A stretch of 64,000 nucleotides of DNA from Longimicrobiales bacterium (GTDB lineage: Bacteria; Gemmatimonadota; Gemmatimonadetes; Longimicrobiales; Gaopeijiaceae). Within the stretch, counting starts at the first letter, position 1. Every line of letters begins with the position of its first letter. The notes under the pieces were generated by a model. It saw nothing but the letters and a program-made list of their open reading frames with translations. It made no database searches and had not been told where the DNA came from. A program made the translations under genes and the position numbers. Below, in pieces: positions 56,562 through 58,433 of the stretch. Location: contig DATHRY010000059.1 in assembly GCA_035464715.1 (NCBI GenBank), positions 1,823 through 65,822 of the forward strand, written 5' to 3'.

Positions 56562-58433
56562 CTACTCGAACTCCTCGACCAGTCGAACCTCCATGCGGGG
56601 CCATGCCCACACGACGTTCTCCGGAGAGGGACGCCAGCGGCCGGCGGCGGTGGCTCCGGTCCCCTTCGGCGTCGGATCCGACGCGGGAGCGTCGACCTCG
56701 GCCCCCTCGACGGCGGGCGCGACGTCCCGGGCGATCCCGGTCCACCCCGAGTCGCGAGCCGGGCCCTCGTCCAGGTACACCTCCTCGAGCTCCAGCACGG
56801 CCGCCCCCTCCGGGAGCGACGACGACTCGGCCTCGAGGACGAGCCCACCCTCGAAACGTGAGCGGAGACGATCGTCGATGTTGTCGATCCGCACCGGGGG
56901 CCGGTTCGCCGTGAGGAGGACCCGCGCGCCTCTTCGCTTCAGGGCCTCGAAGAGGTGGAAGAACTCGTCCTGGGCCCGTTCGGTGTCGGCCAGATCCTGC
57001 GCCCCCTGGACCATGAGGAGGTCCACGGTCCACCAGCGTTCCCGCCACGCGCCGGCGACTCCCTCGGACAGGGCCCGGATGAAGTCCTCCGCGAAACCGG
57101 CCACCGACGTGACCGCCACCGTCGACGATGGGAAGGTCTCCATGAACGTGCGCCCGGCCGCCGCCATGAGGGCGCGGGGGGCCTCGGCCTCGGGGCCCCA
57201 GACGTAGAGGGGGTTGTACTGAGGCTTCTCGGCGGTGACCAGCTGGGCGGCGGACTTGATGGCGAGGGGCGGCATGTGGCCCTCGAGGTCGTCGAGGGTC
57301 GGTCCGGGCGCGAGGCGGGGGAAGGGCCGCATCCGCTCCCGCACGGAGCCGAGGAACGCCTCCGCCTCATCCAGGCGCTCGGGGTCCTTCACCAGTGTCG
57401 CCGCCACGTCGCCCCAGGGGTTCCGGAGCCGCTTGAGCTCCCGGTCGATCTCCCGGAGACGGCCGATCTGCTCCTGGAAACCGGCCAGGCGCTCCTCCCA
57501 GTCCGGCGGCGCCGCCTCCTGGCGCATGAGGCCCCGCAGTTTCCCGGCCGTGAAGCCCTCCGCCTCTGCCTGGTCCGCCACGTCGCGGACCGCCTTCCGC
57601 CAGGGTTCCTCGTGGGCGGCCACCTTCTCGGAGACCGCTCCGGCCACTTCGGTCAGGAAGCTCGCCAGCTCCCGGTCCAGCCCCCGGGGCTCGGTGGAGA
57701 GCCGCGGCGCCTCATCGGGGGGCACGCCGACCAGCTCCGCGATGTCGTCCGGCCCGAGCCTCCGTTCCTCGAGCTCCTGGACCGCCAGCACCCGGTTCAG
57801 CGCCCCACCCAGCTCCCGGACGTTCTTGAAGGGCACCCTCGCGAGCGCCTCCGCCACCCCGGGCTCCAGCTCCTGACCGGAATCCGCCGCTTTCTTGCGG
57901 ATGATTGCCACCCGGGTCTCGAACTCCGGGGGGGCGATGTCCACGATGAGGCCCCCGGAGAACCTGGACACCAGCCGGGCGTCGAGCCCGTTGATCTCCG
58001 CCGGCGGACGATCGCTGGCCAGCACGATCTGCGATCCGGTGTGGGTCAGTCCGTCCAACGTCGCCAGGATCATCTCCTGGGCCTCGGACTGGCCGGCGAG
58101 GAACTGGACGTCGTCCAGTAGGAGGAAGTCCAGGTCCCGGTACCCCTCCCGGAGCTGGTCCCGTTCCCCTCGCTGGAGCGCCGTAGTCAGGTCCTCCAGG
58201 TAGCGTTCCAGCGTCAGGTACCGGACCCGGCCCTCACGCTCGCCCCGCTCCACCTGGTTCGCGATGGCGCCCAGGATGTGCGTCTTGCCCAGTCCCGACG
58301 GGGAGTACAGGAAGAGGGGGTTGTAGCTCGTCCCCGGCGACTCCGCCGCCCTACGCGCAGCCGCCGACGCCAGCCGGTTGGCCGGGCCGACGACGAAGGT
58401 GTCGAAGGTGAAGTTGGGATCGAGCTCCGCCAT
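56562..58433 (-). CDS. Tandem DnaA-domain-III (AAA+) protein lacking DnaA domains I/II and IV
   Basis: The first half aligns along the whole of E. coli DnaA domain III as I recall it ([71 protein letters not shown]). The second half repeats the scaffold ([47 protein letters not shown]) without Walker A or Walker B. Confidence 0.8.
   Translation of the reverse strand: [623 protein letters not shown]

Follow-up and report, generated by a model that had tools for sequence, protein, structure and literature searches.

A tandem DnaA-type AAA+ protein of Gemmatimonadota encoded next to a PATAN–TPR protein

What is the ATPase domain of the replication initiator DnaA doing in a protein that carries it twice and has none of the origin-binding parts of DnaA? 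The question is raised by a 623-residue protein (hereafter, the tandem protein) encoded on a 64,000-nucleotide stretch of DNA from a Longimicrobiales bacterium (contig DATHRY010000059.1 of assembly GCA_035464715.1), which in its entirety is referred to as the window. DnaA-type AAA+ domains are regarded almost only as replication proteins, that is, DnaA itself, Hda and, more distantly, DnaC and IstB. A first-pass annotation had recognized two DnaA domain III modules in the protein and suggested that it may be a regulator of DnaA or of another AAA+ partner.

The reading that we favor is that the tandem protein acts in signaling as a non-replicative AAA+ switch or scaffold descended from DnaA, jointly with the PATAN–TPR protein encoded by the next gene. 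Judged from the sequences and their genetic context, this reading has a probability of about 0.5. Signaling is preferred over replication initiation because the origin-binding parts are missing and the genetic link to the PATAN–TPR protein is tight.

Two DnaA-type modules without the origin-binding domains

The tandem gene and the elements of its product are listed below. Coordinates are those of the window; structural features are taken from an AlphaFold2 (AF2) model, with its predicted local distance difference test score (pLDDT).

56562–58433, minus strand: tandem DnaA-domain-III gene, an open reading frame (ORF) of 623 aa plus stop, third-position GC content 0.91; two stretches matched to Bac_DnaA by Pfam; more than 120 full-length relatives
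57750–58427, minus strand: module 1 (residues 3–228), a complete DnaA-type AAA+ domain III with α/β core and lid, from the profile match, the match to structure 8bv3_A and the invariant catalytic residues
58281–58295, minus strand: Walker A of module 1, GLGKT with K50, from the sequence
58110–58115, minus strand: Walker B of module 1, D107/D108, from the sequence
57963–57965, minus strand: codon of the module 1 arginine finger, box VII R157, from the sequence
Residues 241–252, minus strand: disordered hinge before the linker, from the AF2 model
57330–57674, minus strand: family-specific helical linker domain (residues ~254–368), conserved, with six helices at pLDDT >90 in the AF2 model
56814–57254, minus strand: module 2 (residues 394–540), the α/β core of DnaA domain III only, from the custom profile match and 30% identity to module 1
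57174–57197, minus strand: GPEAEAPR in place of the module 2 P-loop, from the sequence
56856–56858, minus strand: codon of R526 in box VII of module 2, where R522 and R526 are both kept
56640–56813, minus strand: disordered acidic tail of variable length (residues 541–598), with pLDDT <50 for residues 563–598 and poor alignment among relatives
56565–56639, minus strand: conserved C-terminal motif (residues 599–623, the last 25 residues)

The third-position GC content of the gene is as in the real genes of this 71% GC window. Bac_DnaA (PF00308) was matched to two stretches of the protein (E = 2.6e-84, 282 bits), and a custom profile hidden Markov model (HMM), built from 82 full-length canonical DnaA proteins, gave exactly two matches: residues 3–228 to model positions 108–333 (independent E-value 5e-82), and residues 394–540 to positions 128–276 (7e-34). 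When the N-terminal and C-terminal halves were compared by BLASTP, they were 30% identical over 145 aa (E = 8e-21). All three comparisons bore out the two domain III modules of the first-pass annotation; that only the first of them has an intact P-loop was confirmed by the motifs (see below). The top PDB sequence match was domain III of Bacillus subtilis DnaA (E = 2e-55), and the AF2 model (mean pLDDT 87.6, predicted template modeling score (pTM) 0.55) was matched by Foldseek to 8bv3_A with a TM score of 0.91, a root-mean-square deviation of 2.1 Å and 44% identity. Foldseek matches to p97/NSF-type proteins were generic only (TM ≈0.25).

The tandem protein begins at about position 103–108 of the DnaA profile, so domain III comes first. 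It had no match to positions 1–107 (domains I/II) or 346–446 (domain IV) of the custom HMM, and Pfam found neither DnaA_N (PF11638) nor Bac_DnaA_C (PF08299); NCBIfam likewise found no domain IV. The first-pass annotation had noted that domains I, II and IV are missing and proposed an HMM scan that should match Bac_DnaA twice and Bac_DnaA_C not at all, which is what was obtained. It had also concluded that this is not the initiator locus, and the DNA around the gene agrees: dnaN is not adjacent to the tandem gene in the window, there is no turn in GC skew, and the whole window holds a single DnaA-box-like 9-mer (one mismatch at most) against 1.6 expected by chance. In 80 genomes, no DnaA domain IV gene was found within 10 kb of the locus. 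In Gaopeijia maritima, with a chromosome of 4.22 Mb, the orthologue lies at 1.84 Mb, and in CP070829.1, of 4.10 Mb, at 3.55 Mb.

The two modules differ in what their active sites retain. In module 1, K50, D107/D108, sensor I D141, the box VII arginines R153/R157 and sensor II R206 are invariant in 118 relatives, and to judge from these residues the module has all that ATP binding and hydrolysis, and the donation of an arginine finger, would require. In module 2, the GKT of Walker A and the DD of Walker B are replaced, as had been annotated, by GPEAEAPR and by QG (in a VQG sequence), respectively. Its description as a second copy of the same scaffold holds for the α/β core, but not for the lid (domain IIIb) or sensor II, which are both missing. 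Module 2 is thus predicted to be unable to bind nucleotide canonically, yet it keeps both box VII arginines: R522 and R526, together with E485, R486, F491, F492 and H493, are invariant in the same 118 relatives.

The ≈150-aa stretch between the modules, previously described as a helical linker, is indeed helical, but it is a conserved folded domain rather than a loose spacer. Residues W278, R325, L333, N338, P339, W340, E358, E366, R367, R369 and F371 in this region are invariant in the 118 relatives, and a separate AF2 model of residues 250–392 had a pLDDT of 87.8. For the same residues, a profile search gave no significant PDB sequence match (best E = 0.03), Pfam scans of 13 family members gave no consistent match, and a Foldseek search of the PDB with the linker model matched no known fold (best E = 2.6).

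Similarly, the acidic, low-complexity tail proved to be a disordered acidic stretch as described, except for its last 25 residues, which form a conserved motif. Among the 118 relatives, W600, E605 and W611 are invariant and P602, V607, V608, P612 and E620 are at least 90% conserved, and the motif, which can be written (E/D)KvvWxWP....vEE, persists in family members down to ≈26–30% identity. It is a candidate docking peptide. A different tail motif, IPPL(D/E)E..G.RGGLF, was seen in 26 of the 118 close relatives (e.g., P0012, P0030 and P0061). We considered reading its PPL...GGLF part as a clamp-binding sequence, but set this aside, since so few relatives have it and the window protein does not.

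The PATAN–TPR partner and its cyclic di-GMP motifs

The gene that follows the tandem gene has these features.

54939–56561, minus strand: PATAN (DUF4388) plus TPR protein of 540 aa (Pfam DUF4388, 1e-40, and TPRs)
56232–56393, minus strand: two tandem MshEN-type 24-residue motifs, RLGELLVRNHVVSRSDLSAAMETQ and RLGQILVDQGALSEEDLRKYVSIQ (partner residues 57–80 and 87–110), separated by a 6-residue spacer

The TAG stop codon of the tandem gene directly abuts the ATG of the PATAN–TPR gene, in the same frame. Synteny was counted in 80 loci out of the 171 genomes that carry the window-type form of the tandem protein, and the PATAN–TPR gene is immediately downstream in 79 of these 80. Across the family as a whole, a PATAN protein, in most cases one with TPRs, is the sole constant neighbor.

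MshEN domains bind cyclic di-GMP (c-di-GMP) through the signature RLGxx(L/V/I)(L/V/I)xxG(L/V/I)(L/V/I)xxxxLxxxLxxQ, present in two copies about five residues apart (PMC5013675). In the window partner, position 10 of the first motif is H instead of G. The NCBIfam c-di-GMP motif model NF053729 matched the partner with 52.1 bits (cutoff 38). In the window-type and Gemmatimonadaceae-type loci examined, most orthologues of the 540-aa partner share the motif pair: a regular-expression search found both motifs at loci L007 and L008 and one each at L002 and L003; the same search did not find them in the 380-aa PATAN paralogues of the relatives. The α-helical insertion of the PATAN domain may be an MshEN module, and the downstream partner is a probable c-di-GMP sensor and TPR protein.

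Gene fusions also suggest that the DUF4388(PATAN)–TPR protein is the partner. In P0142 (GCA_007125845.1, locus L089, 8001–11081), the tandem DnaA-III protein, PATAN and TPRs are joined in one chain of 1026 aa. The P0142 cluster has four members, on contigs of differing length from NCBI, ENA and Logan. Its locus is orthologous to that of the window, with the order YggS–DivIVA–PNP–IleRS–RluD–[fusion]–Peptidase_MA_2, and the point of fusion is immediately behind the C-terminal WxWP motif, as expected from loss of an in-frame stop such as that in the TAG–ATG junction of the window. A second kind of fusion is found in GCA_030620115.1 (locus L090, 2359–13973, 56% GC), which encodes three MshEN–DnaA-III proteins of 398 aa, 983 aa and 1990 aa (the last with two modules) and a fourth protein with MshEN only; the fusions lie between pilD and pilB–pilT–pilC–pilS.

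The arrangement shares its logic with the MshE and PilB ATPases, in which a two-motif MshEN sensor of c-di-GMP is coupled to an oligomeric ATPase governing pili or surface behavior, although here the binding of c-di-GMP is predicted. The sensor motifs lie in the PATAN domain of an adjacent, sometimes fused, partner, and L090 has MshEN fused directly to DnaA-III modules, next to pilB/pilT/pilC. Moreover, the tandem protein is an AAA+ protein of the initiator clade and not a secretion ATPase of the PilT/GspE class. In Synechocystis, polarity is steered by PATAN domains, which bind the motor ATPase PilB1 (10.1101/2021.06.11.447907), and PATAN genes are known as neighbors of mglA and mglB (PMC4316618). 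A PATAN protein as constant partner is likewise reminiscent of the PATAN regulators (PatA, PixG/PixE/TaxP1) and of MglA/MglB–Frz modules, and relatives of the window protein have the tandem gene directly after genes for an MglA-like GTPase and Roadblock (MglB-like) proteins in a Che cluster. The window lineage differs in this respect, since Che and Roadblock genes are not at the locus and the MglA-like gene is ≈27 kb away. The literature that we found on PATAN and MglA/MglB systems made no mention of a DnaA-like ATPase.

Family history and gene neighborhood

Relatives were drawn from a search of 5.8 billion proteins, which gave more than 120 full-length relatives at 54–82% identity; those close relatives that carry a name are from Longimicrobiales or Gemmatimonadota. 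They appear in the databases as "DnaA/Hda family protein" or "DnaA ATPase domain-containing protein [Gaopeijia maritima]", and IMG labels many members "chromosomal replication initiator protein DnaA". With residues 237–623 as the query, phmmer retrieved relatives of the full architecture down to ≈26% identity. A genome scan, using patterns specific to the window-type form with one P-loop, found this form in 171 species-representative genomes, and among the 80 of these that were listed, all but two were labeled Gemmatimonadota or one of its orders. The survey of the tandem architecture that the first-pass annotation had proposed therefore showed it to be widespread in the phylum, rather than unusual as had been supposed. 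The window protein belongs, by its sequence, to an unnamed family of Gemmatimonadota defined by DnaA-III, helical linker, DnaA-III and an (E/D)KvvWxWP...EE motif. Its novelty does not lie in the fold, which is known, but in the architecture, the linker domain, the C-terminal motif, the partner and the context. (Two contigs of the metagenome-assembled genome (MAG) CA_2019_TPBS_88, at loci L046 and L048, each carry a full tandem gene with its neighbors, either by real duplication or in a mixed bin.)

The distant members differ from the window protein in module 2. A profile of distant members retrieved 120 proteins, of which the named ones were labeled Gemmatimonadaceae or Gemmatimonadetes. All 120 of these Gemmatimonadaceae-type relatives have two G.GK[ST] P-loops, compared to a single one in 117 of 120 close window-type relatives; the extra G.GK[ST] matches in the other three fall outside module 2. 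Walker A, Walker B and the lid are all intact in module 2 of the distant members, a two-site form in which each module conserves Walker B, sensor I and the two box VII arginines. Two intermediates were found: P0141 has kept the P-loop, has DG at Walker B and lacks the lid, and P0140 has lost both P-loop and lid. Because the Gemmatimonadaceae relatives keep two intact ATPase modules, the dead module 2 of the window lineage is, on the sequences compared, most simply read as a derived pseudo-ATPase state, and the form with two intact modules as ancestral.

The family also has a low-GC branch (P0173), whose named relatives are labeled "Gemmatimonadetes bacterium", apart from one "Ca. Cloacimonetes" MAG. 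Past ≈28 tandem proteins, the search with this branch returned just ordinary DnaA proteins. Ten canonical-looking DnaA representatives were looked up, and the named ones were from Elusimicrobiota and Chloroflexota. Modules 1 and 2 are 28–45% identical to each other, and either module is 27–56% identical to canonical DnaA, so that the two modules are about as far from each other as from it; these values do not single out one duplication inside the family as their origin.

Apart from the partner gene, the following genes surround the tandem gene or bear on its context.

58512–59564, minus strand: RluD-type pseudouridine synthase (Pfam PseudoU_synth_2), with a 78-nt gap to the tandem gene
53929–54942, minus strand: Peptidase_MA_2-like protein of 337 aa (PF13485, 33.7 bits, cutoff 32.4), with a 4-nt overlap with the PATAN–TPR gene
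52548–53945, minus strand: NtrC-type response regulator (REC, σ54 AAA+ domain and Fis helix-turn-helix, from Pfam), with a 17-nt overlap with the peptidase gene
28755–29333, minus strand: MglA-like small GTPase, 58% identical to the GTPase of the Gemmatimonadaceae cluster, ≈27 kb from the locus

Upstream of the tandem gene, the window encodes RluD, isoleucyl-tRNA synthetase (IleRS), DivIVA and YggS. RluD is upstream in 80/80 loci, and also in L003, L007 and L089, while IleRS is present in 76, Peptidase_MA in 77 and the NtrC-type regulator in 75 of the 80. This gives a near-invariant order, IleRS–RluD–[tandem gene]–PATAN/TPR–Peptidase_MA–NtrC, which is also that of Gaopeijia maritima, a cultured species. 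The Peptidase_MA_2-like protein starts with what looks like a signal peptide, contains an HEWAH motif and carries a hydrophobic helix at its C-terminus; its acidic tail is predicted to be cytoplasmic. The protein also closes the larger clusters of L003, L007, L008 and L089; being last in the cluster of every lineage examined, it may be an envelope-facing component.

In the two-site and intermediate forms, a larger cluster directly follows rluD. It starts with CheW–CheY–CheA–CheC/X, a TPR protein of ≈900 aa, a PATAN/TPR protein (≈380 aa), a TPR/Roadblock protein, a Roadblock protein and a 157-aa protein, and continues with an Arf/MglA-like GTPase, the tandem DnaA gene, a PATAN/TPR protein (≈540 aa), CheR–CheD–CheB–CheW(–CheW)–TPR and Peptidase_MA_2. 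The low-GC branch has a PATAN gene that follows CheW–CheY–CheA–CheW–CheC and a TPR protein and reaches into the start of the tandem gene. At locus L003, the tandem gene is just upstream of mraW–ftsL–ftsI–murE. The theme of the wider context is chemosensory and small-GTPase polarity signaling. The signaling operon proposed by the first-pass annotation is thus visible both in the window, with PATAN/TPR and the NtrC-type regulator next door, and in the relatives, with their Che, Roadblock and MglA-like genes.

The MglA-like gene of the window lies between a gene for a small membrane protein and pgsA, downstream of dnaX–ybaB. No Roadblock/MglB protein was recognized beside it; a neighboring 102-aa protein was not searched against Roadblock models. 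This protein, which has a hydrophobic N-terminus, is encoded by a real small gene at 29496–29804. Two ORFs considered as Roadblock/MglB candidates, 29380–29814 and 29847–30320, were rejected as wrong-frame artefacts.

Elsewhere in the window, the 2-kb bins 36001–38000 and 12001–14000 have unusually high AT skew (0.32 and 0.23). The first coincides with long minus-strand ORFs (35191–38391 and 36987–39128) for multi-pass membrane proteins.

Possible functions of the tandem protein

If the tandem protein is a signaling ATPase, it might work as follows. ATP-bound module 1 would assemble head-to-tail, like other AAA+ proteins of the initiator clade, and the dead module 2 would serve as an arginine-finger donor or a capping pseudo-subunit, leaving one composite active site per chain. 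The PATAN–TPR partner would dock on the ATPase, possibly by binding the C-terminal WxWP...EE peptide in its TPR groove, and would convey the c-di-GMP status, tuning assembly or hydrolysis as MshEN does for MshE and PilB. Output could go to cell polarity, chemosensory or surface-behavior pathways and, in the reduced locus of the window, perhaps also to the co-transcribed NtrC-type σ54 activator and the membrane-anchored, MA-peptidase-like protein. We consider these specific steps less likely than the core claim of a signaling ATPase working with the PATAN–TPR protein. A dead module that retains its arginine finger resembles the degenerate subunits of NSF D2, ORC and the clamp loaders, which complete the active site of a neighbor. 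In the literature, we found no tandem AAA+ protein of the DnaA branch described.

Several points weigh against a signaling ATPase of this kind. Docking of the peptide on the TPRs, an arginine finger acting in cis and c-di-GMP binding are all things that we infer, and the pTM of the model is just 0.55. Module 1, at 44% identity to B. subtilis domain III, is far closer to DnaA than Hda is, and because module 2 keeps most of the residues that contact single-stranded DNA (ssDNA; see below), residual activity toward ssDNA or DnaA is possible, mainly in the ancestral form. Near the window-type locus, CheA, CheW, CheR and a small GTPase were found in 0/80 cases, the Che, Roadblock and GTPase genes having been lost there, and Gaopeijia maritima, which carries the tandem gene, is described as non-motile (PMC11651109). 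For these two reasons, a role in motility cannot be the whole story. Finally, we found no paper on this family, on tandem DnaA-domain proteins, or on DnaA-like ATPases in PATAN, MshEN, Che or MglA clusters.

The strongest of the other explanations, although an unlikely one, is that the tandem protein regulates the genuine DnaA, either in an Hda-like manner, as in the regulatory inactivation of DnaA, or as a filament cap, and so couples initiation to signals from the cell cycle, division or polarity. It would dock with one module or with both on the AAA+ domain of DnaA and either insert an arginine finger or block oligomerization. Hda is a precedent for a DnaA paralogue that acts on the site of another AAA+ protein, and is a single module of ≈230 aa with an N-terminal β-clamp-binding motif. 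Like Hda and HdaA, the tandem protein has domain III as its only DnaA part, lacks DNA-binding domains and keeps the arginine finger (R157 and R526), even in the dead module 2, where both box VII arginines remain; its homology to DnaA domain III is strong, and module 2 keeps the I, L, R, (K) and E residues of the initiator-specific motif and ssDNA contacts. The position of the locus after ileS–rluD, with DivIVA and YggS nearby and, in L003, mraW–ftsL–ftsI–murE just downstream, would suit such a role, as would the reported absence of the known division-site systems from Gemmatimonadota (PMC11271474). However, the N-terminal clamp-binding motif of the QL[SP]LPL type is absent, the N-terminus running straight into domain III, and the NCBIfam Hda model TIGR03420 scored 110.8 bits, below its cutoff of 194.8. 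The protein is more DnaA-like than Hda, is a tandem and has another gene context, in which there is no dnaN, dnaA or DnaA-box cluster nearby, and its fusions and tightest neighbors are PATAN, MshEN, TPR, Che and MglA proteins rather than replication proteins. The earlier suggestion of a regulator of DnaA thus found no support beyond the homology itself.

A role as an ATPase acting on single-stranded nucleic acid through module 2, by DnaA-like stretching or binding of ssDNA instead of purely as a protein scaffold, and tied to the type IV pilus and c-di-GMP (for example, in the processing of incoming DNA), appears distinctly improbable. In B. subtilis DnaA, residues I190, I193, R202, K222 and E228 hold the DnaA-trio single strand (PMC10721633). 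In the two-P-loop form, module 2 keeps the equivalents of these five residues in 118–120 of 120 proteins and module 1 does not; in addition, the MshEN–DnaA-III fusions of L090 belong to a pilD/pilB/pilT/pilC cluster. Module 2 of the window protein has kept I452, L455, R464 and E490, but T484 replaces the essential lysine, and most contact residues are gone from module 1, which has E80, T83, Q115 (invariant) and M121 at these positions. The K222 equivalent is therefore lost in both modules. The same DnaA residues also make protomer–protomer contacts (PMC10721633), and no competence genes were seen at the locus.

That the tandem protein is itself the replication initiator, or an essential co-initiator that borrows DNA binding from another protein, is very unlikely. 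Besides the IMG label, the argument for it is that the DnaA equivalog model TIGR00362 scored 375.9 bits, above its curated cutoff of 343.9 (NCBIfam), but the match is confined to profile positions 103–326. The tandem protein does share with DnaA the domain III type, Walker A and B, sensors I and II and the box VII arginine finger, and is collinear with it through the initiator-specific motif. It differs in the lack of domain I/II and of the domain IV helix-turn-helix, in its duplicated AAA+ domain, in the added helical domain between the copies and the C-terminal motif, and in the loss of the DnaA-trio contact residues from module 1. What makes an initiator role very unlikely, in our view, is the lack of domains I and IV, of DnaA boxes and of a turn in skew, together with the mid-chromosomal location of the gene (see the two orthologue positions above). 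In addition, the gene has no oriC, dnaN or DnaA-box context and has signaling proteins as neighbors, and the family is confined to one phylum, with its genes embedded in Che and PATAN clusters.

Next to no weight can be given to an anti-phage defense or mobile-element module (a STAND-like AAA+/TPR ATPase, or an IS21 IstB helper): AAA+ and TPR pairings are common in defense systems, and the pairing of ATPase and TPR sensor is similar in STAND ATPases, but here only the P0142 fusion has both in one chain, PADLOC gave no meaningful match, the housekeeping synteny is fixed across 80 species, there is no transposase or composition anomaly, and the weak IstB_IS21 match (34 bits, against 282 bits for Bac_DnaA in Pfam, with the NCBIfam IstB/DnaI models far below their cutoffs) reflects the generic shared AAA+ core.

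If the reading as a DnaA-derived signaling switch or scaffold is correct, it widens the known uses of the initiator ATPase fold: domain III of DnaA would here have been duplicated, would do without origin binding, and would have been built phylum-wide into PATAN, MshEN, TPR, chemosensory and small-GTPase clusters. The series that starts from two live sites, with the lid lost first and the P-loop second, is a natural experiment on the origin of a pseudo-ATPase, and the fusions name a testable partner (the PATAN–TPR protein) and a candidate ligand (c-di-GMP). The family is also an annotation trap. In Gemmatimonadota, the prediction of oriC, the rotation of chromosomes to dnaA and surveys of gene content can all be misled by a passing TIGR00362 score and the DnaA label in IMG.

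More speculatively, a DnaA ATPase duplicated early in Gemmatimonadota might have become a c-di-GMP-gated, filament-forming AAA+ switch that is wired to MglA/Roadblock, Che and PATAN–TPR proteins and sets polarity or the division site, possibly while still sensing ssDNA or the nucleotide state of DnaA. Taken whole, this is a long shot. If true, such a cell-organizing switch could provide the spatial regulator that is missing from this phylum, which reportedly has no Min, MipZ, PomZ, MapZ or SsgAB. A phylum-specific locus next to divIVA, ileS and rluD is, in any case, a concrete candidate for a role in the choice of division site and in polar appendages in Gemmatimonadota.

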